A stretch of DNA of 62,684 nucleotides, filler included, from Basidioascus undulatus (lineage: Eukaryota): the NCBI GenBank assembly GCA_000826855.1. It is 10 parts of 10 records of this genome, joined end to end, with 100 filler letters (N's around TTAATTAATTAA, not from the genome) between each part and the next. Parts side by side here need not be neighbours in the genome. Positions count along the whole stretch, not along the records: positions 25,291 to 29,378 come from JTLS01002245.1; 9 more parts are not named here. One strand, 5' to 3'. The notes below the pieces were generated by a model. That model worked only from the letters and a program-made list of their open reading frames with translations, made no database searches and had not been told where the DNA came from. The position numbers and the translations under genes were made by a program. Shown here piece after piece: positions 19,747 to 50,254 of this stretch. Numbering within the stretch: position 1 is the stretch's first letter; every line of letters starts with the position of its first letter.

Positions 19747-20366
19747 GCGGTGGTCGCCGCGGCGGACTTGCGCTGACCTCCCTCCGAGGCTCGGAACGCA
19801 CGTACCGAGGCTATGCCCATGTTGATTGCACGCGCATGCTACATACACTTATGTGGCCTCTTGGGGCTTCTCATGGTTTCGCCAAACGTTCGTCGTGTGT
19901 CGGTCTGCCTGCCTCGTCTCCTTCAGCAGTGCGCGTTGCCGCCGCTCGTCGCAGTCGGTCCGGCCCTTGAGATGGTGCGGCTGGAGCTTGTCATGACAGT
20001 TTTAGGGCATTGGAAGGTGTAGGGCCGTGCTCGATATGTGATTTAGTGCACGGCAGATGGCTTCATGGCCACGTTTTCCTCTGGCCGGATCGTGTTGCGC
20101 TCTGCTGAGTTCTGCGCGCCAAGCTATCGCTGCTCGTCTGGCGTAGTTACATAGCGTCCTCCTGTGTTTACGCAATTATGGAGCAGGTACCGATGAGACC
20201 TGTTCGTCGGCCGCCCCGATCTACGCTCCCGAAGGTATGCATGGTTCCATCTTGTACCCACCGATATACGCCCGGACTGTTCCCACCTTGGAGCTTCCTC
20301 TACCCATTCCGCCGCAAGCACACTTGAAACGTCAAGCGCTCGTCAAGTCCAACCACCGCAAAGCTT

Positions 20367-21329
20367 TCATGACCCCGCCCCCTCGACCCTATTTGCCCCT
20401 TCCACAGCCCTCTCCACCTCCTCCAGCAGCCTCCTCAGCGCGTCGCGCTCCTTCTCCTGCACGCCCCTGAGCTCCTCAGGGAGGTACACCGGCTTCCCCT
20501 GCGCCGAGTGGCGGTCGAGCCCGAGCAGGCGCTCTAGGACGACCGAGCGCTCGCGCTCGTCGGCGGGGAGGGCGTCGATCGTCGAGAGCACGGGGAGGAG
20601 CGAGGGATTCGAGGCGAGAAGGGCCCGGATCGGGCGGGAGGTCGCTGGAGGACAAGCACGTTTAGGCTGGCACTCGGAAGAGGAGGTGCGGTGATGGGGC
20701 AGGGGAGGGGACGGACCGATGGACAGCACCTCGTGCCGCCGGAGAGGCTTCGGGTCGTTGCGCTTGAGCGGGTCGGTGAAGAGGCTCTCGTCGGGCTCGG
20801 CAGGCCACTTAAGCGAGGAAAGAGGACGGAGCGTCGAGAGAGGGGTGACGGGGCGGTCGAGGGCGGGAGGTGGTGGCGCTGGCGCGGACGCCGATTCAGT
20901 CGCGGCGACCTGGTCGGATGTTGACGGTTCTGCTTGTTCTTCAGAGGTAAAATACAATGAGAACGCCTGTTCATGTGGTTGGGAAACCAGATTGGCGCAC
21001 CTGATGTAGCTGCGTTCGAGGACGGACCAGCTGTGGCGGCGGGGGAACCGGTACCGGCAATCGCAGCTACGGTCGAGATGCGAAACAGGCACATGAGCTT
21101 CATAGCGCTCAAAGAAACCGAAAAATAGAATTACATTTATGTTTACGATAGCAACGAAGCGAGCAGCTAAGTGGAATGCCCCGAAACGAAGCGAGCGAAA
21201 AAAATCAGCAGGCCAGATCGGCGAACGCGGAGCTAGAGGGACGACAGACGAGAGGACGCCGTCTCCTGGGTTAGTGTATTTCGATTCGTTCTGTGAGCAT
21301 ATTTGACAGAGAGGGCGCTTTGGAGGCAT
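20367..21329 (-). CDS. zf-HIT protein (Hit1/ZNHIT3-like, box C/D snoRNP assembly)
   Basis: Spliced N-terminus CQICSQNESKYTNPGDGVLSCSLRCYRKHK. C-terminus LRPLSSLKWP..DPLKRNDPKPL..IATSRPIRALL..LLPVLSTIDAL. Confidence 0.75.
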   Translation of the reverse strand: MPPKRPLCQICSQNESKYTNPGDGVLSSVVPLAPRSPIWPADFFRSLRFGAFHLAARFVAIVNINVILFFGFFERYEAHVPVSHLDRSCDCRYRFPRRHSWSVLERSYIRCANLVSQPHEQAFSLYFTSEEQAEPSTSDQVAATESASAPAPPPPALDRPVTPLSTLRPLSSLKWPAEPDESLFTDPLKRNDPKPLRRHEVLSIGPSPPLPHHRTSSSECQPKRACPPATSRPIRALLASNPSLLPVLSTIDALPADERERSVVLERLLGLDRHSAQGKPVYLPEELRGVQEKERDALRRLLEEVERAVEGANRVEGAGS

Positions 21330-21984
21330 TGTCAGCGCAGTGAAGGAGCGTAAAAAGGTGTTGCAGGTTGAAGGCAAAAAGCAGTCCTATGCGCGTCGCT
21401 TGGCATTGGCTTGGGTTACGTAATCGGCGAAAAGACTTTCACTGCGTCGCGGACATAACCTCTGTTCCTGTGAACATGGCGTGGATGGGGGCTGAATTGA
21501 ACACATTCATATTCGCCAGGCTCTACGCTTGCCGGTAATGACGAGAAAAGTGGTCCATGCCAGCCGGGCCTGCGCACCGCTTCGCCAAATAACGCAACTT
21601 TCGAGCAGCGTCTTCGACATGCCATACCTGCCAAAGAGAAGCCAGAATATGATATATATAATGTTTCCATTTAATAGTACTTTGTGGAAGCTCAGGGCAA
21701 GTGAATGATGTGGAAACCACGGCATGGGGCCATGCCGCTGAGCCGCAGTGTCGCCTAGCGGTGGACCTTCAGAATGTAGCATCAGACTCGAGATGATTTA
21801 ATGCTGAGAAGGTCTATAATAAAAACCAAGGTTCTTCTTGTCCTGACTCCATCGAGACTAGCCACATGACTTCAAGCGATAAAGAGCAGCAAGTTGCCCC
21901 AGGTACCATCCTTTCGACATGGCCAAGAACACAAATGCATTTGAGAGTATACGCAGCGCCTCTTCACCCTTATCTTCACCTTCG

Positions 21985-23315
21985 TCAGTCTAACGGCTCC
22001 TGCTCGACCTCAAGAGACCCACCCGAAGTATCCCCGTCCCGCCGGTACAGCCTTTTCATGCAGTAGTCCCAAGTCATCGGCATCCCACCGGTCTCCTTCC
22101 AAACCGTCACGACCGGGCCGACCGGCAAAATGATAAACGGACTGCTGAACTCGCCCTCATAGGAAGACCGGCCGCCATGTGTCCGAAAGGTTGCCACGCC
22201 CGTACGTCGTCCCCGCCGAAACGACGTTCACAAATGGAGCGCGACTCAGGTGTGGACAGCGTGCCGCGGTTGGTGAAGCCTTTGTGCGAGGAGCTTGACG
22301 GCAGTGAACGCGAAAGCACGAGAGCCGTATGGAGTCACCGGGGGACCGAGCAGAGATAAGCATGCCAGTCGCCTTCCTCGTGTCCCAGAGGACCAGAGCC
22401 GGGTTCGCTGGGAAGGCGCTTCGCCCAGGGAGTCCCCCCTCTAAGCTCACCGCATGCTGCGGCCCGGCAGGCCGCTTTGAAGGCGGTGAGGTGCAGGGGG
22501 TGGCTCGAACCGAACCGATAAAGGAGAAAAGTCGTCAGGCGCGAAAGATTCGACGATGAGAGACAGGATGACCAAAGAAAGCAGTTCGAAAGGCGCAAGA
22601 GCATGATTCGATGCCGGGGGGACGAAACGGTCTCGAAAGACTACCGGGCGGAGAGTTGGAAGCCTGTGGAGTCGGAATAAGGATGTCAGATTTTGAAACA
22701 GCGATGCCTCTACGGAATGCGGTGCATTCGATATTCGCAATTCACTTGCCCGGGTCCCTCAGCGCCGCCGCTTCACGCCATCTGAAGGGGTTTCCCAAGA
22801 ACCACTCAGCTGCCGAACCGAACTTCCCACGAGTGCTCCCTCCTTCATCCAGAAGACCCCATGCCATGCGCGTCGAGTTCACGGCGAGCTGGCTGACGAA
22901 CTCTGCGAGGGCAGTGAGGGCCTCGGGCGAGTCGTCCCCCAGCCCAAACCAAGCGAGACAAATGTCCAAGCAGGCTGAGTGGAAGATGGGCATCCCCTGT
23001 TGGGAATGCTGCTGAATGGACCGGAGCTGTGGAAACGCGAATGGGTTTGAATGGAAAGGCAATTAGTTGCTCGCAAAAGAGGCACGAGCGAGAGTCCAGC
23101 CCGCACCTGACGCTCATCGTCATGCCGTTGTCATTGTGCCTCCTATAGGAGATCCCCGCGTCCACAGGCACGGCCTTGTCCTTCACCCCCCGAGCGATCT
23201 CGAGCAGGACTGCGCTGGAAAGGTGGGCGATATCGTCCGACGTGAGCTCTGGAGGCGGAGGAGGGCTGTTGGAGTGGAGGAACGGTGCGCAACAGAGGGA
23301 GCAGCAGAAACGCAT
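21985..23315 (-). pseudogene. Hypothetical protein with a CxxC..PF / FHxxC N-terminal region and an F-box-like segment; appears frameshifted
   Basis: MRFCCSLCCAPF..., PIFHSACLDICL, APFELLSLVILSLIVESF lie in different frames with plausible splice sites. I could not assemble a clean model. Confidence 0.3.
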
Positions 23316-23699
23316 GGCGAATGATAGAGGTTTGGGTGTAGGTGGCGAATCGGTCGGAGCTCGAGGGAAGACGAGCCTACGGTTATCAAGAAACAGGGGC
23401 GGGAAACGAACGAAGAACTTGACCATGGAAGCCGACATTGTTGTCGATCTTAATTTCTTTTCCAGATTGGCCTGTCTGGGGAGGACGGTGGGAAGGGTCC
23501 GCGGCGGCCTGCCTGTGGGGCTGGAACTCTACCGGACCGAGTGCGTGAATACACTGCAATAACACTGCAAGGCCGCAGAACGCCCCGCAAAGCAGGAATG
23601 TGAGAAAAAAATCCTTATGGCTCTAAGGATTCATACGAGGAGGAGAGTATCACAAAGAAAGTCTTGGTAGACATTTTAGTTGAACGACAGGCATGCTGT

Positions 23700-24700
23700 G
23701 TACGGACGCTGGCTTCCATGCTTCCAATTACGTACTGTTTCCAAAAATTGATAAATCCACTCTTTAACCCCGTATTTCTTATCAGACTTTTTACCCTTGA
23801 GGAGACTAGAATTGTGATCGGATAAGACATAGCGAAAACATAGCCGTCACACTGGGATGCGAAAACGTACCATGGCACGATGCTGAAAGCATTCCATAGT
23901 GCAATACACCAGGGTGGGCCATAAATGAAAGAAATTGTGAAAATACAGTGCAGAACTATTACTTGTAGGGGATAGAGAAATGTGAAGGCGATATTGACCC
24001 CGCAGTCTTGCCGGCTGCGGACCAAAGCAAAGTGATCGCAAGGCCGACAAGTGCAGTGAACCCGGGAAGGGAGAGGAGGACGCCTGCGTTGGAGGTTTAG
24101 GTCGAGCTAGAGACCGAATCGGTCGCCGTGGTGGTGGTGCTGTCAACGTCCGCCGTACTGGTGCTCGAGGTCGAGCCGTCCATCGTAGTGGTGGCAGTGG
24201 GGTACGTGCCTGTTGTCGATGAGATGTCAGCCCATCTCCAGGCTCAGTGGAGGGAAACTAGGTGATATTCCAGAACTCACTGTACTCGGCCTTTATCTCA
24301 AGGTTTCGCTGGTGGTGCAAACGTCCGTGGTGTCGTTCGTGTTGGTGAAGATGAGCTGGTAACCGGTCGTAGGCTGAGATCGAGCGCGTACATGCCGTTG
24401 AGGACCCAGGACTGGTCGTAGGATATGATAAAATAAATCAACGCAACCATGCTAGAGGCGACTTCCAAGATGGGGAGCAAGAGCGCACCAGGAACGTTCA
24501 CAGCAACCGCCTGGGAACTGGAGCGGGCATTTCAACAAGCGCTCGCATGAAAGCAAATGAGGCAAGACATCCAAATAAGTACTCACCCGCTCAGAACAGA
24601 AGTGTTGCTGTTCTTGATGCAGACGTTGAACTCGCACGGGCTCGAGCCTGTCCAGGCAAAGGCCTGCGTGACATTACCTTTGATAACGCTCCGGAAGGTC
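23700..24700 (-). CDS. Possible small multi-exon membrane protein, or a remnant of one
   Basis: Hydrophobic ORF pieces (ALLLPILEVASSMVALIYFIISY; FTFLYPLQVIVLHCIFTISFIYG) flanked by gtgagt donors. Gene model unresolved. Confidence 0.25.
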
Positions 24701-25127
24701 GGTGGGCAGGGCAAGCGGAGGAGCGAAAGCGGTTTCGCGAGCGAGCTGGCCAGTGAGAGGAGCGCAGCCGGGGAATTGCCGCAACTGGACACAAAATTTC
24801 TTACTTGCAAAAGTGGACATAGGTACATGAGTTTGTGTGTCTATACCGTCTGTCTTACGATCGAGGCCGGCAGTTTCAGGCAGACAGTCCTCGGCTGTGC
24901 TGAAAGGAAGGCAGCCAGCCACAGGACAAGGGTCTTTGCGAAGTGAAATGGAAGCCAGACTGCAGTGCGACTTGGTGCGACAGTCTACAAAAAATATTGC
25001 TTCATATCATGGAATATTTGCGTTACTCTCGACAGATACAAGTACAACTAGTCAAACAGTCCCATCCCGGAGAAACATGCAATGCAAAGAGCCTGTGTCG
25101 ACGTATAAACCCGAAAGAAATGTGGAG

Positions 25128-25172
25128 CGTAGGAGTGGGAGTGGGAGTGGGAGTGGGAGTGGAAGTGGGTGG
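25128..25172 (+). repeat. (GGGAGT)n hexamer microsatellite near a contig end
   Basis: ggagtgggagtgggagtgggagtgggagtggaagtggg. Confidence 0.8.
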
Positions 25173-25190
25173 AGCGATTAGACAGAAACC

Positions 25191-25290
25191 NNNNNNNNNN
25201 NNNNNNNNNNNNNNNNNNNNNNNNNNNNNNNNNNTTAATTAATTAANNNNNNNNNNNNNNNNNNNNNNNNNNNNNNNNNNNNNNNNNNNN
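25191..25290. other. Artificial contig linker (N44-TTAATTAATTAA-N44); also at 29379, 33561, 37743, 41921, 46096, 50255, 54379 and 58532
   Basis: Nine matching 100-nt spacers with stop codons in all six frames. Genes are cut at them and do not resume on the other side. Confidence 0.97.
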
Positions 25291-26743
25291 TGGCGGGCCG
25301 CACGGCAATGCAAAGGGCGCGTGCTTGAACATTTTGCTGGGACCCGATGCCCAAGAAACAGTACATGATGGCACGAGCTGCAGTCAACAATAGCGGTTGC
25401 ATTCAACAACGATACCTTGATTTGCTCAAGCTGTGAACCGTCGATGAACGAAATAAATAATTGTGCGAGACTTGGCGAGACCCATCCGAAGGGGCCTTGA
25501 ACCTGAAACACTCGAAACAGTAAGCCCATATTCTGAAGCGAAGCGCCGTGACGGGAGCCTGCTTGGCAGGAAAGCAGAAAGCACAGAAAGCAGAAAGAAC
25601 CAGCGCCCCTGTACAAATCACGCACAGGAAATACCACCTGAACTCGAGTTTCGCGGGTGCAACTTACTAGACATATCCCAAACGAGGGGAAGAAAGAGAA
25701 GGCTGTTTCTAAGAAAAGTCATGGGCGGGGCAATGCGATGCTCCATCGTTTAGTCAAGTTGAGTCCGACAATCGCGGTAGCGGTTGGCCGCATGCAGTTG
25801 ATGGGGACGGTACGGCTCGCGCGGTGGCTCGCCCGTGGGCAACAAGGGACTGCAGGTGTTCTAGATGTAGGCGGAAGCGTCGCCGTCCTCGTACTTGAGG
25901 GCTGCGTGCTCGGAGGCGACAGACCCGGCGCCGTCGCGGCGAAGCGGGATGGACAATGACGTCGCCGGTGGGAAAGCTGATCTCGGCTCCCGTCCATGAT
26001 TGGCTCCCGTCCATGACTTGGACGGGGGAGACATCACCGCTGCCATACGATGCGAGTGGGAATCAAGATGCGGGTGCGGGAGGGGCACTGTGCTATAGAG
26101 TGGGGACGAGGCGGAGGACAGTGGCCGTAACGGAGACACCCTGCGCATCACTACCCTCCGCCGCTGCCCCTTTAGGCTTCTCCGGTGTAAGATCGAGGCG
26201 TCTAGACGCGCTCTTGCTATCGGAATAAAGTGCAGACGGCCAGTCAACTTTCTCCAAGGCCTCGCGACATCTCCACAAATAAGCCCATGTCCGTCAGATG
26301 GTGGCGAATACGTCCGCGCGTGCATGATGGATAGCGAGAGACGGCGCGCGATTAGTACATGCACGACGGCGGTCGAGGACTTGAGAATCGCAAAGCGCCC
26401 ATGTTGGCGGCGTGACGCAGCATGGCTGGGAACGAAGGAAACCTGCGCAGCGAAGAGACTGCTTTGGCGGGATGCGGACGGACGGTGGTCGGCTGAGCGG
26501 ACGGTGTAAGCGCGAATAAGATGTCGGGCTACGCATCGGATCCGCTGTGGAGGGAAGGCACCATGGGACGAAAGTGCGAAGTCGATGGTTCGAGGGCGGT
26601 AGACATTAGTAAGTTAATTGGTGCGAAGTGGGCGAAGGGTCTGTTCGACCACAGACGAGTGCTCCTCATGCAAGTTCCGTTATCGCTATCCATCGCTCGA
26701 CCCTCTACACCGCCCAGCCTACTCCTCCACCCCGCCCCTCTAA

Positions 26744-27464
26744 TCAGTGGTCCACCTTGTGCGCCTGCTCGAAACGGATGCCGCTGCGGACAAGGGGGAT
26801 AGATGAGGTCAGGGGGGAGACGGGGATCGCACCAGACGAGCATGACCAACCAGTAGCTGTGGGACGCAGCATGAGTCAGCATGCGGACAGACCAGAAATT
26901 GCCGATGGACGTACCCGCAGCTGTGAGGACCGGGCTTGTCGAGCTTGATGAAGATCTTAGGGTGGCCGAGGGGGCCGCCGCCTTCGAGCCCCATCCAAGG
27001 TCAGACCTAGAGTTCCCCGCCCCTTTCCGCAAGCAACACGCCGCGCGCCGCACTCACCACCATCGCAGGAAGCAATCCGACCCTCCACCAGGCGCACCGG
27101 CTCCCTGCGTCCCCCCACCATGCGTGAGCAAGTGTCTCCCTGCTCGTGCGGGCACCACGCCGACTCACTGCGCAATCATCTCGATCGCAGCGAGGGGCTG
27201 GGGCTGGAGGGGCAAGTAGGTCTGCTCGAAGCGCGCGCCGACCATTGCCTGCTCGCGCGGGCGCTGGTGCTCGGACCACTTGGTCGCGCGGTTGGGGGCC
27301 TGGGGCGGGAGCTCGGCGAGCGGCGTCTTGCGCTCCTGGAACTCGACCGGATCGCGGGGCGAGGTGCCCTCGGGGCGGGGCGCGGGGACAGCGGTGTGCT
27401 GCGAGCGCGTGAGGACGCGCAGTGGGGACGGCCGCGGCAGGCGGCGAAGAAGCGTGCTAGACAT
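26744..27464 (-). CDS. NDUFS6: NADH:ubiquinone oxidoreductase zinc-finger subunit (NDUFS6/NUMM), 5 exons
   Basis: Mitochondrial-type presequence, QAPNRATKWSEHQRPREQAMVGARFEQT..QPQPLAAIEMIA, EPVRLVEGRIASCDGGGGPLGHPKIFIKLDKPGPHSCGYCGIRF. Confidence 0.95.
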
Positions 27465-27995
27465 GGCGAGATGATTGAGGTCAACGGCGAGGATGCTCGC
27501 GAGCTCACCGGCGATGGACGCAGGGGAGCGCGGACCTAACCAAAGAGCGTAGGATGAAGTTGGCGGCGAATCGCAGTGGTGTGAATGCACTTTCGTGTAT
27601 AGTGGCACACACCTTCCTCAACTCATCTTTGAAAATACCGAGAATAAAATGTTGTTTGCATTCTCAAGTATGGGGGGGTGGGTCAACGCATAAAGTATGC
27701 CCAACAAGCGCTACGAATGCGATGCAAAGTTCGCTGGCTGTCGAGTCTGCAGCCCCGACACGGTGTGCAATGAATATAGGAAGTCAGAAGCAATCCATTT
27801 ACTGACTTGTTTATAACCAAATATTCTGCTCGAAAGGACCATACAGCTGTGTGGCAGTTCTGAAGACGCAACAACCACTACCAGGCATGGCACTTTCCCC
27901 CTAACACACTCTGTCAACTGCCGCATCAGTGCCAGCAACTATGTGCTTCGTACACTGCCGTGCAACAAGAGTTTCGACAAGAGTGCCGTTCCTAA

Positions 27996-28006
27996 CGGCT
28001 CATTGG
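27996..28006 (+). promoter_or_regulatory. Pol III A-box-like element in the leader of the permuted tRNA
   Basis: CGGCTCATTGG compared with the TRGCnnARYGG consensus, about 30 nt upstream of the B-box (GTTCAATCC, 28037-28045). Confidence 0.55.
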
Positions 28007-28021
28007 TCGTGCGGCAGCGAA

Positions 28022-28101
28022 ATGGTGAGGTCGGTTGTTCAATCCAGCCAGGGGGCACTTGAATTGCCCCTTTAGCTCAGTGGTAGAGCGCGCCACTCGT
28101 A
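28022..28101 (+). tRNA. Circularly permuted tRNA-Thr(CGU): 3' half 28022-28057, 8-nt spacer, 5' half 28066-28101
   Basis: 5' half GCCCCTT TA GCTC AGTGGTA GAGC G CGCCA CT CGT A. 3' half A TGGTG AGGTC GGTTG TTCAATC CAGCC AGGGGGC A. Reordered, they give a 72-nt cloverleaf with all four stems fully paired (Watson-Crick or G:U). Confidence 0.9.
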
Positions 28102-28106
28102 CTGTC

Positions 28107-28111
28107 TTTTT
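28107..28111 (+). terminator. RNA Pol III oligo-T terminator
   Basis: TTTTT begins 6 nt after A37 of the 5' half, and further T-runs follow. Confidence 0.7.
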
Positions 28112-29101
28112 GCTTGTCTGACAGTCTTTTTGTTTCTTTTGCCCCATTGTCTGTTCCAGTGCCTTTTTTTCATGCTCGAGCGTCGGATATGTGTGCTCTG
28201 TTAAAAAAGGTGGGTTGGCCTTCACCAAGATGTGCACAGGAGGCGTGCGGGTGGATCTTGGGTGGATCTGTCCCGTCCAGGGTCGAAGGTAAAGACGGCG
28301 TTGATTGTCGTATGTTACCTATAGCAGGTGGGGCATGGAGGCTCTCATCTTATTCCTCGCACGACGTGCCTAGCAGTCTGCAGAACGTCTGCCAGTGCTC
28401 AATTGATGTCCGCCGAGCTTCTGGGATTCGCGTCCTCACGAATAACTGCCTTGCTTCGGAAACCACTAGTTTTTTGCTGTGTAAACAGGCGGTCTGTTTT
28501 CATTGTGTCAGCACAGGCAGAGAAAGTCGCTGTCATGCCCAAGCCCTGCTTGGGACTCGAGTCTTGGGCGTGAAGAGTACTAGTTTTACGCAGCGGTTCC
28601 GGCTGCTGGCATTACGAAAGAAAGAAAAAGCCTTCCTAGGCGGTTCTTTCTGCGCCCGAGGAGTCTGTTTATGGTTGATGGAAAGCAAGCATTCCAGGGA
28701 TAGGTCCCGCAAGTGCAGACGACATGTCCGCCCGACCCCGGCCCGTCCGCAAGAGCTTCGGTTCTCGTTGTCCTTCCGCAAACAGCCAACCCGTGTCTTA
28801 AACTATCAACAGTTGTTGGTTGATAGCACTCCTCAGCGTATATTGAGTTCGCCTCAGCCGTGCGCAGTCCACGCAGCCTTTGTGGCGCTGATGCATTCGA
28901 GGGGCTGCGTGTCCGCATTCCTTCGCCGTCCCCCTCTTTTGAGCCCCGCTGTCCGTCACGGCCTGGATGAAGAGTGGAGATTTCTCTCGACTCTCCGTCA
29001 ACAGCTCCCAACAGCCACACACATTCGTTCATCACGCTCGCGTTCAATTTACGACGTCCCCGCCTTCGCATTTTTTACGTATTCGAACTCATACCCCTAC
29101 C

Positions 29102-29378
29102 ATGCTCCTCCTCCTCGCGCTCCTCCTGGCTGCGGCGTCCGCCTGCGCGCACACCTTCGTGCACAGCCCCATCCCGCGCGCCCACCGCGACATCCCCTAC
29201 TCCAGTGGCAACCCCTGTGGGGACGAAAGCACGGTGATTTCGAAGGCGAACACCTTTGCGCGCGGGCAGAGCGTCGAGCCGCAGTGGGTGTGAAACAGTG
29301 CGTCTCGAGTCTGCCTCCTGTTTCATGGGCGCCATCTGGGCTGGTTCGAGGGCTTGACGTCGTGATTGAGGGGGGAAT
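29102..29378 (+). CDS. Secreted protein with His at mature position 1 (LPMO-like/histidine-brace candidate); truncated by gap
   Basis: MLLLLALLLAAASACA|HTFVHSPIPR...NPCG...TFARGQSVEPQW, then an intron. Confidence 0.6.
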
Positions 29379-31125
29379 NNNNNNNNNNNNNNNNNNNNNN
29401 NNNNNNNNNNNNNNNNNNNNNNTTAATTAATTAANNNNNNNNNNNNNNNNNNNNNNNNNNNNNNNNNNNNNNNNNNNNTTCCCATCTCCTCTTCATCGGA
29501 CTGGCTCCTACGCTCTTTTCGCTCCGTTCACTTTGCGCTCGGCTCGCAATACTTCCTCTTTCTCTTATTTCCGCCCTCTCGACGGCTTCGCTTCCCAAAA
29601 TATTCCGACTCCACATTCGTTCGTCACCATCTTGCCCACCTTGCTGTGTCAGTCTCGGTTCGGCTCGAGCACTGTACACCTGCCACTCACTTGTGATCTT
29701 CGGATCTCACAATGCACCGATTTGAGTGAACGCTTGACGTATTGCTGCTTTGCCAATATCTGCGCTACGAAAGCTGACGAAGTTGAAGCTCCGACAAGCT
29801 GCTGCTCGCTGCCGTCGGTTCAGATTGAAGGGTTCTGGACACGTCGCATCGCTGCAGTTCAGATTGTGGGCCCGAATGGCTCGAATGACCTTTATTCAGA
29901 TTTCTTGATTGGTGCAGGCAAATCGTACTGTACAATTTGAGGTGTCGGAGGTGCTGCGTCGACTAGAGAAGAGCACTTGTTTGCCCGCGTGAGCCATAAG
30001 ACGCGTAGAACTTCTACAGCCCTGAAGGAACAGCTTTGAGCCTGGGCAAATTTACATCCTTTTATGCTATTTGCAAGTGCTAGACCCTGTGCAAGTCCAT
30101 TCATGCGAGCCAAAGCGTGCAGGCAGGCAAGCTAGCTAGCCCCCGCGACAGTGCACATGGAAGACTAGACTCGAGCCCCTCGTCCTCGTAGAGCCAACTT
30201 ATCGAGTTTGAGATCGTCCTTTACCGGCGCGCTTCCTCCCCCTAAGTACTTACAATGCATCTTTCAGGTCGATACCGCCGATGGAGAAAGCTCACAGTCC
30301 GGCGTCATGGTGAGACTGCCACCCCGGCGCCTGTGTGATGTTCGCTGCATTTGCTCCGTTGGGTAAGCATAAGACTTCAGGCCTCTAATTTTTTTCTGAT
30401 ATAATGCTCATAAATCATGAATCTGGACGATGAGAAAGAGAAAGCATTGACGGTCTGTCAACCCGGCTTTTGCAGTCCTCATACGGCAGCGCTTGCATGC
30501 CTTTGTCGAGTGTCTACGTGAATTCGCCCCCAGAGTGAAATTAATAGGACTTTATAGCTCATAAGAAGGCCTGTATGAGCTCAAGGGAGAAGTGCGTCAG
30601 TCTCCACAGCGCAACGGCGAAGACTGCACACGACGAGCCCTTTCGCAACTGCAACCACGTGGATCTGGAACGTCTCGGTTTGCCCAGGCAATATGCAGCC
30701 CACGTATACCAAGAGGCTCTAGTTGTGGGAGGGAGCTTATGTCCACTTCACTAGTTTGCAGAGGCCTCTCGCAACGTTCGTGTTCCGAGTCAGAAGGCGG
30801 AGAGGATGCGTGGGGCTTATGATACTGCAGCTGCGCAGATGAACACAGACCATTTAGGTTCACGCTATATACGATGCTTGTAGGAGGGATCAATGTCGCT
30901 ATTGCCGCGTCGTCACAGTCGCACAGACGCTGTGTTTAGAGCGAAGTCCTCCGGGGTGCAGTTTGGCGCTCCGTCTCCGCGTGTGCAACTCTGTTCGCGC
31001 CTCGCTCTTACGGCCTAGCCCTTGCTGCCCGCTGTGAAGTGCGAAGCAAGCGACGCACTCTCTGTCCTGTTCCACCACGACCTTATCCCAACCTCTCAAC
31101 GTCAGCATATACGGCGCCGACGGGG

Positions 31126-33560
31126 ATGGCATACCAGTGGAACGGGCAGCCTGCGCAGATGGGCTACGACCCCGCCATGATTGTCCACGACAGACCCGCG
31201 CAGCCCCAGCCTTGCGCACCGACGTCTGCAGGTCCAGTCCACCCGAACCAGCAGCCGTACCAGGGCCATGCGCAGGAATACTTCCAGTCCCAGCAGGCGT
31301 ACGCCCAGCCGAACGCGTCGTACGCGCAGCAGCCCCAGGCGCACCATGCCCAGGCGTATGCCCCCCAGCACACGTACCAGCTGCCCTCTCACTTCCTGCC
31401 CACCCCGACCTCGGCCCATCCTCCCTCTCATGCATACCCAAACGTCTTCAACACGCTCCTCCACCCTCCGCCCGGCCCGCCCGACCCCTCGCTTCTCCTC
31501 GCGGCGTACGCGCTTCCCTCGGCCCTGCCCTCCTCGTCCGGTCCGTCCATTTCCTTCTCGCCCCTTTCTTCATTTGTGCTGACGCTGCGATGTCCGATGC
31601 AGTCCTGGACCACCTCGGATCCCTCCGCCTCTCCTCGCCCGCACACGCGCGTAACGCATACACCCCGCCGGAATGGCAGGCCGGCATGGACTTGGGCCGC
31701 GCGGTCAGCCAGCCCGGGTGGGATGGCGTGGACGCTGGTCTGGCGGAGGCGATGAGGAGGGAGCATGAGCGGGGTTTGGGGAGAATGCCGTGCGTTTATC
31801 GTTCCATCTTTTTCCGGAGCAGGGAACTGACCGCATTGGACTGGAATGACGCGCATACAGCCACATCCACGTCCCCGACTACTACCGCTCCCCAGCGCCG
31901 ACCTCCTCCCCCCACGCGACGGGCCCACACCCCGCCCCAAGCAGCATCGCCTCCGTCCTTCTCCCCCAAATCCCCTACACCGCCCCTTCCACCTTCCCTG
32001 CCTCCGCCGGCTTCACCGCGCACTCCTCCGCCTCCTCGCCCGCCTACCTCTCCACGCTCCTCCAATCCACGCTCTCTTCCCTCGCCGCCCAGCCCGCCCC
32101 ACAACAGGAACCCGTCTCGACGCCGCACGCGCACCGGTTCGCGACGCACACGCCGACCGAGTCGCCCGACCCCCTCCTCCTCCGCTCGGGCGGGCTCCAG
32201 CCCACGCCCTCGCCGCAGAAACGCAAGTCCGCGTCGGACCTGCGCGAGAGCCCGATTGTCAAGCGCCTCAACGGCGGTGGGGAGGTGAAGACGCCCTCGA
32301 AGCAGAGGGTCACGATTCGCGTCCCGGCGCGCAAGCTGGCAGAGGCGGGGAAGGCGAGCACGCCTGGGCATAGGGCGGGGAGCGCTAGGGAGTTGGAAGA
32401 GGAGGAGTTGGAAGAAGAGGAGGACGAGATCGAGATGCTCGAGGCTTCGAGCGCCCCGGGGACCGGTGGGAAGCGTGCGCTCTCCACTCCCAAGAGCACT
32501 GGCGCGGACCGATGTTTGTCTCCCCCCACTCCCCTCTTCCTTCTACCCGCACCGGAACTCACGCACCCTCATTCAGCTGCCCTTGACAAGCTCACCTCCT
32601 ACATCGAAGACATCTTCGAGGCCGAAGACTCGCTCTCGCCCGGCGCGCCCCCGCACCCTTTCCACGCCACATTCTTCTCCCCCTTCTCCCCCCCGCCCGA
32701 CGCACAGGAGTACTGCCAGCCCCAGCTCTCCGCTGCGTCGATAAAGAAGCTCGCGAAGCTTGTTGGCGGGGTGGCGCGTTGGCGCAGGGCGGGGTTGGCG
32801 GACTTGGGACGCGGCGAGCAGGAGAACGGCGAGGGGGAGGACGGCACGGTCGCGATGCTGGGACGGCTGCTGCGGATTTTGGGGAGGAGCGTCAGGCGCG
32901 GGGGGGAGGGGTTGATGGTTTGGGGCGAGGCGGCCCCCGCCCCGGCGAGAAAGACGCCGAAGGGGAAGAAGAAGCCCCCCGCGGCCGCGTCGACCCCAAA
33001 GAAGCAGCAGCGCGGGCGACAGCCGACCGCCACGCCTGGGTCGGGCTCCCACTTGCGCCGCAGCTCGCGGAGCACATCGAGCTCGCAGCGCTCGAGCGGG
33101 ACGGGGGAGGAGGAGCGGGAGGAGGAGGCGGAGGAGGAAGACGAGGAGGACGCGGAGGACTCCCCCGCGAAGGGGAGGGGACGGTCCGGCCAGGATGTTA
33201 CGGACGAGATGCTCGATCGATTCGAGGACGACGTAAAGAAGGCCGCGGAGGCGGTCCTTGCTGCGGACTGCACGCTCGCGATCCTGAATGCGGAGAGGCT
33301 GCCGAAGCAGGTGCGTTAGGGCTGGGTTACTGGGGAGTGATGGAGAGTGGGCTGATGGGGCTGTTGGGGATGGGACAGCTCTACTCGGAGGACCTGATCA
33401 CGGCTTGTCTGGGCACGCTCAAGCACCACCTCAGCAAGACGATCTACCCCTACGTCGAAACAATCTCGGACTCGTATCGTGCGCCATCTCCCTCCTCCCA
33501 ACCCCCCACACCAACAATACCATAGCTCCTTCTCAAAAACCCAACCACCTACCACGCTTG
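31126..33560 (+). CDS. SCC2: Cohesin loader Scc2/Nipped-B, 5' part (truncated)
   Basis: Low-complexity N-terminus, then ALDKLTSYIEDIFEAEDSL, LGRLLRILGRSV, AVLAADCTLAILNAERLPKQ|LYSEDLITACL. Confidence 0.85.
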
Positions 33561-33660
33561 NNNNNNNNNNNNNNNNNNNNNNNNNNNNNNNNNNNNNNNN
33601 NNNNTTAATTAATTAANNNNNNNNNNNNNNNNNNNNNNNNNNNNNNNNNNNNNNNNNNNN

Positions 33661-34093
33661 ATTGGGGTGGTGCGGGTGCGGGAGGAGGAGGGCGCGCGCG
33701 GCCAGGGGGAGGGGGATCCGGGAGCTCGTACCGGCCATCCTCAGTAACGGAGAACGACCGATCATCATCAATGCCGTCGTCGTCATCGGCCCCTCCACCC
33801 GCGGCCCCCACCCATCCGCTACGAAACCGCGGCTCCTGTTCGACCGTCACCGCCGCCGCCGCCGGGCGGAAGTGGGAAGTCTTCTGCCGTTTCGGTGCGG
33901 GGTCAGCGGCGGACGGAGGAGGATGGTGAGGGCGGTAGGGATATGGTGGTGCTGGAGCAGTCGGTTGTGCTGGTGGTGGTTGAAGGGCAAAGGACGCCTG
34001 GGACTGGGAGATGAAGCGGGCCTCGGTCTTGTCGAGCGTGTCCAGCTCGGCCGGGTCGAGCTCAAAGTCGTACGCGTCATACTCGTCCGACAT
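33661..34093 (-). CDS. N-terminus of a hypothetical protein (acidic start, P-rich; possibly Rad26/ATRIP-like); truncated
   Basis: MSDEYDAYDFELDPAELDTLDKTEARF... stays open to the gap with gene-like codon bias. The family guess is weak. Confidence 0.5.
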
Positions 34094-34549
34094 CGCGCAG
34101 CGCGAGCGTGGATTGGGGGCTATTGAATAGTGTGTGAGATCTGGGGTGGGAGGGACGGCATCAGGCCTGGGCGCAGAGCAAAGGGGGAGGCAGAGGCAGA
34201 GCCCGGAGATAAGGGCAAGAAGCAAGAGAAGAACACGCGACGCGAACGCGCAGGATCTGCGCCAGTCCCCCGCATCAGGCTCCTGTACCTATCAGTGCCA
34301 ACTGCGATGATGACTCGGCGGAATGGTTTGACATATCTAGATATAATTGTTTGAAATACGCCTTCAGGACCATGCGAGAAAAAGGCAGGTGACATTGCCC
34401 ATTGCTTGATGCATCAATAATGGCTGCGGGCGCGATGCAAGGCACTTGGAGGCGACTCACCCCTCCGCCTTGCAAAAGAGACACCAGCACTACACCATGT
34501 ATAAGGTTCCCAGAGCGTGCACAAAGGTTTTTATGAACAATGCCCGCCA

Positions 34550-35765
34550 ATGTTGAGAGCTTCCCCATTTCCCATTCCCGTACCGCACTCTTTCACCGTC
34601 GAGCTCACTAGCAGTTTCTTCGTCCTCCGACTGGAACTCAAGAGTACTCGTCCTCGGACCCGGAGGAACGAACTGCCGAATAGAAACCCGCAGGACGTTC
34701 CATGCTTCGTCGCAGAGGTCGATCCCATGCTCAGCTAGCTTGACACTATGTTGCGCGGCCCAGCTGAACACAACGTGATCAGCTGGAGAGTTGGAGGTCC
34801 AGGAGACTGCGCTTCGAACGCAGCTAAGGAAGACCACTCGCAGCTTGGGCGGGGGGCGCGAGACAGAGTGCTTCCAGGAAGTCGAACACCGCAGAGCGCG
34901 CCCAGATCTTCAGCGACCGGAGACGCATGGGCAGCCCGCCAGCAAGCGCCGGGCCAGGTCCGCATGAGGAACACAGGTCAAGGTCACAAAGAGCGTTGCA
35001 CATGGACAAGGCTTCGATCACGGCGGGTTCCTGATCTCGATTGTAGTGGAACACGGCGAGTTGGTAGAGGTGCGCGCTATGGCGCTCAAGGAGAGTAGGA
35101 ACAGCGGGTTCAGGGATGTGCGCTGCATGGTGAACGCCAATGTGTGCAGGTGCGGGAAGTAGCTCCTCGCTAGCCAGGGCTGTGCCGTCGCCGAGAGAAA
35201 GCTCGAGCCCAGCGTGAGATCCTCAAGCCGCGGCAGACAAAGGCAAGGCAGGCTAAAAATGTATGGAATGGGCAGTGAGATCTTCATTTTCAGCATGAGA
35301 ATCCGAAGTCCAGCCAAGTGATTCAAGCACGGCAGACCGCGGACGCGGAGTCGCCGGACAGATCGACGGTGACTTCGAGCTGTTGGAGAGCAGGGCAGCA
35401 CGTCGACAGGGCTTGGAGGAGGGGTGCGCCGTCGAACGAGCTCGCCTGCCGCGACTCCTCCTCCGCTGTAGTGAGCGGATATCATGAGGGCGCCGTAGAA
35501 GGCGTCGACAGCGGGCAGATCCTTGATGACTGCGACACTCAGGAAAGCCTGCCGTAGAAGCCTCTGGATTTATGAGAAGATTCGGCTTGTATTGTCTTTT
35601 CAGCGGACTTCAGAGAACAAGAGCAGAGTGCACCGACAGGGAGCGGTACATCAACGTGAGCAACGCCCTAGTCGTCGCGGCTTCCTGGTTGGAGCCCTGG
35701 GCAGCGAAATTGAAGATGCGTGCGATGACTTTGATAGGAAGTGACAGAAGAGAGCTCCAAAGCAT
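34550..35765 (-). pseudogene. F-box/LRR-like gene remnant
   Basis: MLWSSLLSLPIKVIARIFNFAA... followed by an early stop. Downstream LRR-like pieces LPRLEDLTL and FPHLHTLAF. Confidence 0.4.
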
Positions 35766-36015
35766 GTTGAATGCGGCAAATACTCTCGGTCTGTATGAGT
35801 GTGGAGTATGATGGTGGTTGAAGGCGCAGAGGTGGAAAGGAACGCGATTGGGATGCTCAGTGCTGTGCGGCGGCCTGTAGCGCCAAACAACGTACATTGC
35901 CGGCTGCAGGCGGCAAGGGCCCGCCGCATCTTCGCCTTACTTCATCACCGCGCCGCCAACACACCTTTGAACTCCCCTCTCCTCCCTTCCACACCCCACT
36001 GTACCGCTCCCGTCT

Positions 36016-37742
36016 ATGGACGAACCAACCGCGGCAGATGTCGTAAAAGGATCCAAGGACGTAAAGGAGGAGGACCCTGCCAAGCTCGCGCGCCGCCGCG
36101 AGCTGCGAGCTGCCAACCTCCAGGCGCACTCGTCTGATGAGTCTGGTGCGTTTCCCCAGTCCCACTGCTTTCAAGGGGTGCTCCCTGAACATATTCTGAC
36201 CACTCCAGCAGAATCTGCCAAGCTCGACTCGTCTCTCAAGCGCCACACGGCGTTCCTCAAGCGCATCAAGCTCGGCCTGGGCGCAGAGAGCCTCGCGCAG
36301 AACGTCAAGGACATCCAGCAGCTCAGTCTCACAAAGTACATCGAGGAGATCGTCGCTGTTGTGCCTGAAGGCGCGGCGAAGTGCAAGAACGAGAAGGACG
36401 CTTGGGCGGCAGTCGAGGTGAGCGTTGGAGCTGCGAAGTGGGGAGGGTGTGCTGGGTGGGGTAGAGTGGGTGCGGTTAGGGGATGGAATGGGCGAGGAGC
36501 TAGTCCAGTGTGTTTACACGCGGACTGACGCGATCCGGACAACTGCAGACCATCTCAGCGCTGCACCAGCGCTTCCCGACCTCCTTCACGCACCCGCTCT
36601 CCTCTCTTCTCGCCACGGCGCTCGCGCCCTCCTCGCGCACCGTGCTCGCGACACTCCCGCCCGAGCAGCGCGAGAAGGAAGAGAGCGCGCGCCTCACCCG
36701 GCAGCGCCCTCTCCTGCGCGTCGCGGGCGAGCTCTGGCTCGTCGGCGTGCTGATCGACCCTCCTGAGAAGGAGGGCAGTAAGAAGAAGGAGGGCGCGCCG
36801 AAGGACGGGTGGTTGTTTGTTGTGCTGAAGGAATTGGTAAGAGGTCGCTTTGCTTCGTGCAGGGGAATGGTGGCTAAGGGGACCTGGGGATCGATCAGCT
36901 CGCGACCGACCGCGACCACGCGAACGTCCCCCTCCTCACCTCCTTCGTCAAGCACTTCTACACGCTCGTCCTCGGCCTGTTCTCCGCTCCCGCAGGGGCG
37001 GACCCGCTCATAGAGTCCGCGACGCAGGAGCGCTTCCGCGCGCTGTGCACGATGTACTACGAAACGCTTGCGCGGAAGCTCGTCAAGGAGCACACTGTGG
37101 GTCTTCTTCCCGACTCTAGGCTGGAGGGTCGTGGTCGGCTAAATGATGTGAGACGGGGCGGCGGGGCGTTGAAATAGCGCCTTCAAGAGCAGGATCGCAG
37201 GAACCACGAGGCGTATATCCGTTCAGGAGAGATCTTCGAGGACCGCCAGCAGGCGTATGAGAAGTTCACGAAGGCGTATGAGAAGCTTCTGTCCTCCACA
37301 CAAACGTGCGTTCCTCTCGCCTCTCAAAGCGCAGCCCCATTCTCACATAGCCTTCTTCCACCCCAACAGGCTGTCCGACCTCCTCCGCGTCCCGATGCCC
37401 GAGCTCCCCACCGCGCAGACCAAGGGCCTCGTCCTCGTCGTCGGTGACGGGCAGTCGGCGTTCGCACGCGGCGAGGGCGAGGAGTACGACAGCGCCGGCG
37501 GCAAGTGGGAGGACGAGGAGTCCAAGCGCTTCTACGAGGATGTCCTCGACTTGGCGGATCTGGTGCCGGCCGCGATTTTGGGGACGAAGAAGGGCGAGAA
37601 GGTCGAGGAGGAGAAGGAGAAGGAGAAGGAGAAAGACGAGAAGGAGCTGGAGAAGCCGCTGGATGCGCCCGCGGAGGTTGGCGAAGCGGCGCCGGCAGCG
37701 GACGGGTGAGGACCTTCGTATCTCGTCTCTGTGAGAAGGGGA
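36016..37742 (+). CDS. UPF2: Nonsense-mediated decay factor Upf2/Nmd2, 5' part (truncated)
   Basis: KLDSSLKRHTAFLKRIK, LSLTKYIEEIV, DAWAAVE|TISALHQRF, RQRPLLRVAGELWLVG, QDRRNHEAYIRSGEIFEDRQQAYEK, KWEDEESKRFYED. Confidence 0.93.
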
Positions 37743-37842
37743 NNNNNNNNNNNNNNNNNNNNNNNNNNNNNNNNNNNNNNNNNNNNTTAATTAATTAANN
37801 NNNNNNNNNNNNNNNNNNNNNNNNNNNNNNNNNNNNNNNNNN

Positions 37843-38703
37843 GCCTGACACCAACCTCCCACACCCCTCCCCCCAGCTCCATGACAAACTTCTCCTCCTC
37901 CACTCCCTGCGGCAAGCGGAGCACGAGCTCGACCCCGCCCGCTTTCTCAGGGGCGTCGAGCACATACACGCTCTCGTGCGCGGTGGACCGCACGGGCCCC
38001 GCGCCGAGGATGGACGTGTAGAGCAGGGTTGTCGGGGCGAGGGCGGTGCGCGAGAGGAGGAGCGTGAGGGAGGCGATGGAGGTGGCTTTGTTCGGGTGCG
38101 CGGTGGGGGACGGGGGGACGCGTAGGGCGCGGGGGGTCAGGTCCTACTACCCATCCACCCTCAGTATCACCACGAGCTTGTGTTCGGAAGAAGCCCACGC
38201 ACCTCGCAGTAAAACGGCACGCTCCCCCGCTCATACCTCTCCCCCGGAAAAGTGACCTTCCACCTAACCTCCTCCCTATCCGGGCGCTTCCTCCCGCCCT
38301 CCTGCGGGGGATCATAGAAGCTCTCGACGCCCTCCTCCTGTTCTTTGCTCCCCAAAAGCGCCCAGTCGATCCACCCCTCGCGCTTCGCAGCCCACCAGTG
38401 CCCCTCGCGCTTCGCGCGTTCGTCGCTCCCCTCGGGGTAGTGCGAGAGCGGGTGGACGAACTGGATGAGCTCGATGTAGATCCCGTCTGGGAGCTACGGA
38501 GGGGAGAGTGAGTATGCGGGCGGAGAGGGGAGGGAGAAAGGACGCACGACGATGAGGGCGTTGGAGGTTAGCCCGTCCGCGTGCGTGCCCCCGGGGAGGA
38601 CGGTGAGGCCCAGGGAAGTGAAGTGCTCGACTGTGCTGGACAGTTCGCCAGGCGGGGAGAGGTGGATGAGGTGGTCCAGGGTGCGGGGGTTCGCGGGGGA
38701 CAT
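37843..38703 (-). CDS. Glyoxalase-like (Glyoxalase_3/VOC) domain protein; 3' end truncated
   Basis: TLDHLIHL, GLTVLPGGTHADGLTSNALIV|LPDGIYIELI, EGWIDWALLG, GGRKRPD..VRWKVTFP, VPFYCE|DLTPRALRVP. Confidence 0.85.
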
Positions 38704-38987
38704 GGCGGTGAGGGGTATGGGATAGGGCGCGGTTTGGAGGGTATATGGTGGGTTTGGATTGGTATAAATATTGGTACGATGCGAAGAGGTCGAGTCACAA
38801 TCAGAGTTACAATCCATGGGCAGTATCGCGACAGCCAGAGTGTGGGGACCAGCCCGGTTCCTGTCGGCTTTAGAGTGTTCTCAGAACCCCCGCTAGACAC
38901 CGGCCTTCTCCCAGCCGTGCCTTCTCGCTTCGCCCTCCTGCCTCCAAACCGTCTTCCATCCACCGTCATCTCCCTCTCGATCTTACA

Positions 38988-48842: not shown

Positions 48843-50254
48843 ATGTGGAGGCACACCGCACAAACGACCGGCACCAACGAGGTGCCCATCGCCAACCCGC
48901 GCCGCTTTGGCGGTGCGGCCTCCGGCCCACCTCCCCCCGGGCCTCCCCCGCCTGCGAACGGCGACGGCCGCTACGACGACCGCGACAGGCGGGATTACGA
49001 CCGTGACGGGCGCTACAACGATCGCGACGGTCGGTATGATGACCGCGATAGGCGGGACGCGGACCGCGGCAGGCCGGAGGAGCCGCTGCGGGATGGGGGC
49101 TACCCGGAGGAGCATGGCAAGCGTGGGCGCGAGGAGGACCGCGCGTCGTCGGGGACTCCTGGTGGCGGTGAGTTGAAGCTTCCTTTGATGATTTTCTTGC
49201 GAGGGTGGTGCGTGATACTCACGCTCGGTGGACTGGGCAGAGGACGGCGACCAGCCGCGCAAGCGCCGCTCTCGTTGGGGCACGGCACTGACCTCGACCG
49301 CCAACAACCTCCCGACCGCCATCCTGAACGCCAACGTCTCGCAGCAGCAGCTCGACAACTATGCCTCGCAGATGCGCATCGAGGAGATCAACCAGAAGCT
49401 GCGCAGCGGCGACTTTGTTCCGCCTGAGCGCGAGCGGTGTGTCTCCCTTGATCGCGCGAACACTTCATCAACTTCCGCAGCGACTGACGGTGGCTAGCAA
49501 TGTTGCAGGTCTCCCTCCCCTCCCCCGACGTACGACTCGCACGGTCGCCGTACCAACACGCGGGAAGTCCGGTACCGGCAGAAGCTTGAGAACGAGCGTC
49601 TGCGCCTGACTGACCGGCTGCTCAAGTCGGACCCGAACTACCGCCCGCCGGCCGAGTACCACGCGCAAAAGCGCGCGGCGCGCCCGCAGGAGAAGGTGTA
49701 CATCCCCGTCAAGGAGTTCCCCGAGATCAACTTCTTCGGCCTGCTCGTCGGCCCGCGCGGCAATTCGCTTAAGGGCATGGAGCGCGAGTCGGGCGCCAAG
49801 ATCAGCATCCGCGGGAAGGGCTCCGTCAAGGAGGGCAAGGGCCGGCCGGGCGCATACTCGGAGCAGGACGAGGAGGACCTCCACTGCGTCGTCATGGCCG
49901 ACTCGATGGACAAGGTCGCGCTCTGCGTCAAACTCATCAACAAGGTCATCGAGACGGTGCGTTCCTCCGACAACGTCATGGGATATATAGAAACATCACT
50001 TACTTATATGGAGGGATGGGTATTCAGGCCGCCTCTACGCCGGAAGGCCAGAACGACCACAAGCGGAACCAGCTCCGCGAGCTCGCGGCGCTCAACGGCA
50101 CGCTCCGCGACGACGAGAACCAGATCTGCCAGAACTGCGGTGGCGTTGGCCACCGCAAGTACGAGTGCCCCGAGCAGCGCAACTACACGGCCAACATCAT
50201 CTGCCGCGTCTGCGGGCAGGCGGGCCACATGGCGCGCGACTGCACCCAGCGCCA
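48843..50254 (+). CDS. MSL5: Branchpoint-bridging protein / splicing factor 1 (truncated)
   Basis: [19 protein letters not shown] domain [28 protein letters not shown]2 [13 protein letters not shown], two CCHC knuckles. Confidence 0.97.

Follow-up and report, generated by a model that had tools for sequence, protein, structure and literature searches.

How does a tRNA gene come to carry its two halves in reversed order, and how is such a gene still transcribed once its internal A and B boxes have changed places? According to PMC3978253, both the origin of permuted tRNA genes and their transcription by Pol III despite the reversed A and B boxes are regarded in reviews as open. The answers given so far are a duplication model in which no upstream remnant is preserved and, for an alga that seemingly lacks the box-binding TFIIIC subunits, a TATA system that works independently of TFIIIC. 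A locus in Basidioascus undulatus, a basidiomycete, raises both questions together. In this work, the window means the whole stretch of DNA that was analysed, 62,684 nt in length, and all coordinates given below are window positions. The window contains a circularly permuted tRNA-Thr(CGU) gene, preceded by a leader in which a sequence-only reading had seen the decayed 5' half of a tRNA gene, left over from a tandem duplication and kept as an upstream A-box.

Architecture of the permuted locus

Type II (37/38) permuted tRNA genes have been described in Cyanidioschyzon merolae and in prasinophyte green algae (Soma 2007, Maruyama 2010, via PMC3978253). The gene in the B. undulatus window occupies 28022-28101 (80 nt) on the + strand, and its junction likewise lies at 37/38. 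The features of the locus are the following.

27985-28021 (37 nt), + strand: leader of the permuted gene, in two parts, a relic-like piece and then a 9-nt pairing segment
27985-27999, + strand: inverted repeat GCCGTT-cct-AACGGC, -6.3 kcal/mol when folded alone, equalled by 3 of 200 shuffles
27988-27994, + strand: heptamer resembling an acceptor strand, with an identity of 4/7 to tRNA positions 1-7
27996-28006, + strand: A-box-like 11-mer CGGCTCATTGG, 8/11 identical to the gene's own A-box, with 2 mismatches to the consensus
27998-28013, + strand: D-arm-like 16-mer, candidate upstream 5'-half relic, 13/16 identical to 28075-28090
28013-28021, + strand: last 9 nt of the leader, which in the minimum-energy folds form two helices, GGCAG with CUGUC of the trailer and CGA with UCG of the anticodon loop
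28022-28057, + strand: 3' half of tRNA-Thr(CGU), positions 38-73, beginning with A38 and containing the B-box region (28036-28046)
28058-28065, + strand: intervening sequence (spacer) of 8 nt, which closes the acceptor stem
28066-28101, + strand: 5' half of tRNA-Thr(CGU), positions 1-37, including the anticodon CGT as well as the true A-box (28073-28083)
28102-28106, + strand: trailer of 5 nt, complementary to leader positions 28013-28017 and predicted by folding to pair with them
28107-28170, + strand: cluster of T runs, likely Pol III terminators (T5 at 28107-28111, T5 at 28127-28131, T4 at 28137-28140 and T7 at 28164-28170)

A search of the window for the permuted order (3' half, short spacer, 5' half) returned this single match, compared with none in 100 shuffles, and neither ARAGORN nor Rfam reported an ordinary tRNA in the window. 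When the two halves are joined by a script, ARAGORN recognizes a tRNA-Thr(cgt) of 72 nt with a canonical cloverleaf and the conserved nucleotides. The joined halves are flawless, with 7/7 acceptor pairs and 5/5 anticodon-stem pairs, and both U33 and the anticodon CGU are placed in a complete arm. The internal A-box agrees with the A-box consensus without any mismatch. Downstream of the gene, four runs of at least four T are found on the + strand within 64 nt, while none occurs in the 1.1 kb between 27000 and 28106, and the first T5 run begins exactly 5 nt past position 37. This distribution fits a Pol III unit ending here and is the main ground on which the gene is considered likely to be live.

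The trailer and terminator module recurs 20 nt further on (28101-28115 compared with 28121-28135, 87% identity), and the sequence TTGCCCC(T/A)TT occurs at 28064 and again at 28139. The repeats TTGCCCC(T/A)TT and AC(T/A)GTCTTTTTG were considered as possible traces of a second 5' half or of a 3'-half relic downstream, and this candidate was rejected. Since the alignments of 28101-28170 to the gene are at chance level, we read the downstream repeats as probable T-rich back-ups of the terminator rather than as another gene relic.

In its general plan the locus is similar to algal type II genes: one strand carries the 3' half ahead of the 5' half, with a short spacer between them, leader and trailer can pair into a BHB-like motif at 37/38, and a T run follows downstream. 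It differs from them in its fungal, basidiomycete host, in a leader with a D-arm look-alike, and in the length of its spacer, which is 8 nt here and 31 nt in the C. merolae Thr(CGT) gene (PMC3978253, Table 1).

The surroundings of the locus were also described. Genes in the window are split, and only two ATG ORFs of at least 350 aa are present in it. The SF1 gene (49216-50246) contains a 59-nt intron, and the gene for a bacterial-type, presumably mitochondrial, IleRS (38874-41875) contains introns of 62 and 85 nt. SF1 exon 2 is 96% identical to proteins of two Agaricomycetes, the best full-length SF1 matches show 62-71% identity, and all 16 of the organism-named SF1 matches belong to fungi; judged by their names, 15 of these 16 are presumably Agaricomycetes, Ceratobasidium having been checked. 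A pectate-lyase fragment is also found in the window. These genes look basidiomycete, and an alga such as Cyanidioschyzon was rejected as the host on account of the 8-nt spacer, the intron-rich genes and the fungal SF1 matches. The tRNA locus itself lies in a stretch without recognisable genes, and no Pfam family at E <= 1e-4 was found among the scanned stop-to-stop ORFs of at least 110 aa with starts within 20000-38000. The ORF beside the gene (28189-29430) was set aside; it has no Pfam family, ends in a masked stretch and looks non-coding. Eighteen runs of 44 N occur in the window, arranged in pairs every ~4.1-4.2 kb (the first at 25191-25234), and none of them falls within 27700-28400.

Splice-site pairing and the hairpin of the leader

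Of the functions that might be assigned to the leader, pairing at the splice site alone is clearly supported by the sequence, as modelled by folding. The predicted minimum-energy structures contain the permuted cloverleaf together with both leader helices. The central helix, formed by CGA of the leader (28018-28020) and UCG of the anticodon loop, has a pair probability of 0.77-0.93 with all RNA starts tried. The outer helix, formed by GGCAG (28013-28017) and CUGUC, reaches 0.65-0.91 when the RNA starts at 27960, and only 0.05-0.15 when it starts at 27978 or 27985. The true cloverleaf is present in every fold, with probabilities of 0.66-1.00 for the acceptor pairs and 0.80-0.96 for the anticodon-stem pairs. 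The predicted BHB-type motif at the junction has a relaxed form, with a central helix of 3 bp (possibly 4) and bulges of 2 nt; a relaxed bulge-helix-bulge arrangement is known from permuted and intron-containing pre-tRNAs (PMC3978253, PMC4090602). By analogy with the algal permuted genes, the tRNA splicing endonuclease would cut leader and trailer at the two bulges, and ligation would then lead to a circular intermediate, subsequently opened at the acceptor stem.

The inverted repeat at 27985-27999 had been assigned a different role in the sequence-only reading, namely that of a hairpin preventing the old acceptor strand of the leader from competing for the 3' acceptor strand. The repeat is indeed present and folds when taken alone; the anti-competition role was not supported. 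Pairing between the relic acceptor strand and the 3' acceptor strand (28050-28056) has a probability of at most 0.10 in the nascent RNA and of 0.00 in the full precursor with every start, whether or not the hairpin is formed, and on this folding a shield against mispairing was rejected. In its context, the hairpin has a probability of 0.96 when the RNA starts at 27960 and of 0.02-0.22 with starts at 27978 and 27985, which agree with the start predicted in the sequence-only reading; with these two starts another hairpin of the leader prevails (GCCGU paired to GCGGC, and ACGGCU to GGUCGU). Perfect 6-bp hairpins with loops of 3-8 nt are found in 6.2% of the 3132 60-nt stretches of the window, and over its full length the leader is no more structured than usual (z of -1.20 and +0.19). 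As far as the folding models go, the hairpin has no demonstrated role.

Resemblance of the leader to the 5' half and its possible origin

On re-reading, the letters and coordinates reported earlier for 27985-28021 proved correct. Within the leader, 27988-28013 forms a 26-nt mirror of tRNA positions 1-26 (28066-28090), with one extra base at positions 8-9. Identity amounts to 4/7 over positions 1-7, 8/11 over positions 8-19 and 5/7 over positions 20-26, with 13/16 in the D-arm block. Outside positions 8-9, transitions make up only 2 of the 6 substitutions, which was counted against a relic, and the acceptor-like heptamer adds nothing to any local alignment score.

A scan of both strands of the window (~125,000 positions) with the D-arm 16-mer revealed the leader as the sole other match of at least 13/16, and four sites matched at 12/16. 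The leader match lies on the gene's own strand, 77 nt upstream of the gene's D-arm, and is collinear with the 3' half. Local alignments were compared with two nulls, 4139 window chunks and 1000 dinucleotide shuffles, under four scoring schemes. When the 36-nt 5' half was aligned to the 60-nt leader, p was 0.018-0.118 with chunks and 0.015-0.115 with shuffles, the highest values (0.115-0.118) coming from one scoring scheme; for positions 1-26 alone against the leader, it was 0.004-0.068. A broad test, in which the whole 80-nt gene was aligned to the 100 nt upstream, gave p = 0.078-0.281 (n = 2473). In the first alignment run, equal scores were obtained for 106 of 2052 chunks of 122 nt, with a query offset by 2 nt and a count that includes two gene-bearing chunks. 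The narrow test is fair if the published duplication model is taken as a prior prediction, and the broad one is fair if a reader was free to notice anything. Judged from these alignments, the resemblance between the leader and the 5' half appears to be real, and only marginally beyond chance. Of the mirror claimed for the 5' half, the D-arm block, unique in the window, stood, whereas the acceptor part, at 4/7, did not add to it, and the p-values are marginal.

A tandem-duplication model for permuted tRNA genes predates this locus and predicts an upstream 5' half at this place (PMC3978253). Applied here, it would start from an intron-containing tRNA-Thr gene that duplicated in tight tandem, with a spacer of 8 nt. 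In the upstream copy, a deletion would have taken away positions 27-37 together with the 5' portion of the ancestral intron. Still present in that copy would be positions 1-26, since decayed, followed by the intron's 3' portion, which would be today's 9-nt pairing segment, and by the 3' half. The downstream copy would have lost everything beyond the 5' part of its intron, and would end in the T runs. The missing anticodon arm, remarked upon in the sequence-only reading, was borne out, the D-arm-like piece being only 8 nt from A38 (28022). Specifically, the G26-equivalent at 28013 stands 8 nt before A38, where 11 nt would be expected without an intron.

A comparable trace has been reported in Ostreococcus lucimarinus, in which an extra 5' half adjoins a permuted tRNA-Cys gene (PMC3978253); this extra half and the duplication model are already in print. 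As in that alga, where the surplus piece was read as a trace of duplication, a 5'-half-like piece lies beside the permuted gene in the window. Unlike in the alga, this piece lies upstream of the 3' half, where the model would place the outer exon that was lost, its D-arm has decayed to a match of 13/16, and it has no anticodon arm; the accessible portions of PMC3978253 propose no promoter role for the algal piece.

It is plausible, and we propose it tentatively, that 27988-28013 represents a decayed copy of tRNA positions 1-26 left over from such a duplication. The earlier claim of a duplication relic is in agreement with the strand, the collinearity and the model-predicted place of the piece; it is weakened by p-values of ~0.004-0.12 and by the absence of a reciprocal relic downstream. 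A search for a 3'-half relic in the 100 nt after the gene found none (p of 0.25-0.98, or 0.24-0.83 with both strands). Orthologous loci were sought with a degenerate pattern (T-loop, 3' acceptor, gap, 5' acceptor, D-arm), and none of the 8 loci found in a metagenome scan, nor the 1 locus found in viral contigs, was orthologous. A relic of this kind may be neutral by default, and it might in addition offer TFIIIC an A-box on the correct side of the B-box.

Less probable than a relic, and nevertheless a serious possibility, is that the leader is an ordinary 5' flank, in which the 9 pairing nucleotides are the only working part and the likenesses to a D-arm, an A-box and a hairpin are coincidental. 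The broad test and the equal scores of the first alignment run are in line with coincidence, as are the frequency of comparable hairpins in the window, the usual folding of the leader and the lack of a downstream counterpart. The A-box likeness points in the same direction. With the A-box consensus motif and up to 2 mismatches allowed, the window contains 291 A-box-like sites, compared with 307.9 +/- 16.7 expected, and at least 291 were found in 86 of 100 shuffles; because such sites occur at chance frequency, the A-box-likeness of 27996-28006 says nothing alone. Neither the A-box likeness nor the hairpin is significant when taken alone. What coincidence accounts for less readily is that 125,000 positions yield a single match of 13/16 or better, that this match falls 77 nt upstream of the gene's D-arm, on the same strand and collinear, and that the hypothesis-driven tests reach p = 0.004.

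The relic could also belong to a dead locus. It is rather unlikely that the whole locus consists of two tandem tRNA-Thr genes in decay, a pseudogene which has only the look of a permuted gene and is not expressed as a permuted tRNA, with the relic as its more decayed half. Such decay would suit a host lineage without known permuted tRNAs in the literature searched, and an ordinary tRNA-Thr(CGU) copy may exist elsewhere in the genome. It agrees poorly with the flawless acceptor and anticodon-stem pairing of both kept halves, with a trailer complementary to the leader, and with a T5 run placed exactly 5 nt past position 37, followed by three more T runs and preceded by none over 1.1 kb.

Transcription of the gene and significance of the locus

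The fungi that have been studied depend on TFIIIC. No TATA-like sequence was found within 50 bp upstream of the permuted gene, and no AT-rich 8-mer within ~190 nt; since the fungi studied use TFIIIC and no AT-rich 8-mer is nearby, the promoter problem is real at this locus. The nearest AT-rich 8-mers are located at 27807-27827, about 195-215 nt upstream. C. merolae, by comparison, is the only organism for which the transcription of permuted tRNA genes is discussed in the accessible portions of PMC3978253 and PMC3728597, with an upstream TATA-like element proposed. Most of its permuted genes have a TATA-like sequence within 50 bp upstream, unlike the gene described here, and TFIIIC-independent, TATA-driven transcription was argued for this alga, in which homologues of TFC1 and TFC3 were not found (PMC3978253, PMC3728597).

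Only two AT-rich stretches are present in the 320 nt upstream, 27807-27827 and 27769-27778. The former, which lies ~200 nt before the 3' half, holds TTTATAAC followed by AAATATT, and it loosely resembles the T/A-rich boxes printed upstream of C. merolae tRNA genes (PMC3978253; PMC3728597 and its supplement 1). A long leader beginning there would be possible, because no T run of at least four lies between this stretch and the gene.

The A-box-like element had been placed about 30 nt ahead of the B-box, and this was confirmed, with 29 bp from 27996-28006 to 28036-28046. Combined with the B-box of the 3' half, a relic A-box could constitute a normally ordered TFIIIC promoter, with a start at ~27976-27988 and kept by selection, which we consider unlikely. 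The order of elements is that of a yeast type II Pol III promoter, an A-box-like 11-mer being followed 29 bp on by a B-box-like T-arm; the host of the window is a fungus, and the lack of an AT-rich 8-mer within ~190 nt means that a TATA promoter of the C. merolae type is not evident. In yeast, the B-box carries the affinity, while tauA contacts the A-box weakly and mainly via the DNA backbone (PMC11724288). Because of this weak reading, a degenerate A-box could serve here; equally, no preserved relic would be needed, and weak, shape-based recognition makes a special relic unnecessary. Several observations speak against a promoter kept by selection. The likeness to an A-box is at chance level, and at 8/11 this part is no better preserved than the flanking 5/7 and 4/7. 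Unlike the A-box of a yeast type II promoter, the putative element is not part of the mature tRNA, departs from the consensus at two positions, one of them being the lost invariant T8, and stands 29 bp from the B-box, just under the natural yeast range of 31-93 bp (PMC11724288).

The probability that the A-box works lies largely within the probability that the relic is genuine, an unlikely case inside a plausible one. The full proposal, that a basidiomycete has a working permuted tRNA-Thr(CGU) gene which is transcribed because the decayed 5' half of its founding duplication still supplies an upstream A-box, is, on the sequence, slightly less likely still.

A Y-RNA-like or other tRNA-like ncRNA of equal topology (T-arm, closed acceptor and D-arm, then a terminal stem) is extremely improbable. 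The locus does have its tRNA-like arms in the circular order seen in YrlA (RF02553), with a closing stem built from the 5' and 3' ends, and the search pattern used for orthologous loci also retrieves YrlA-like RNAs in metagenome and viral contigs. The match of 28016-28117 to YrlA in Rfam is weak, however: at 18.8 bits (E = 1) it stays far under the gathering threshold, which is 69. Joining the halves gives back a full anticodon arm with U33 and the anticodon CGU, and YrlA is bacterial, whereas the window, a eukaryotic context, has spliceosomal introns and fungal genes.

The loci retrieved by that pattern may be described briefly. Metagenome loci L001 and L003-L007 are YrlA-like, with 35-58 bits, all under the Rfam threshold of 69; the viral locus L009, on a 92-kb contig, is YrlA-like too, and together these loci cover 30-58 bits. 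L003, L006 and L007 are closely related to one another and have a long helix between leader and trailer. Metagenome locus L002 spans two adjacent ordinary tRNA genes, taking in the end of the first and the start of the second. L008 (1206-1252, - strand) is a permuted-order tRNA-like element which adjoins a tRNA array on a contig of 37% GC, and Rfam gives no hit for the matched part; since its leader is complementary to its trailer, this element may be another Y-RNA-like gene.

The literature searched yielded no permuted tRNA gene from any fungus, and the description of tRNAscan-SE 2.0 mentions permuted tRNAs for archaea only. Likewise, no proposal of an A-box in the leader of a permuted gene was found in the literature searched, which includes the accessible portions of PMC3978253 and PMC4090602. 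The upstream remnant, statistically weak and seen at a single locus, is a lead and not a result.

A permuted tRNA gene in a fungus would represent a new host range for this type of gene. If the reading of the leader as a working remnant is true, one locus records both the origin of a permuted gene and its continued expression in a TFIIIC-dependent eukaryote. A fungal permuted gene with an upstream 5'-half remnant would make both questions testable at a single locus; TFIIIC is used by the fungi studied, and many species of fungi are amenable to culture and transformation.
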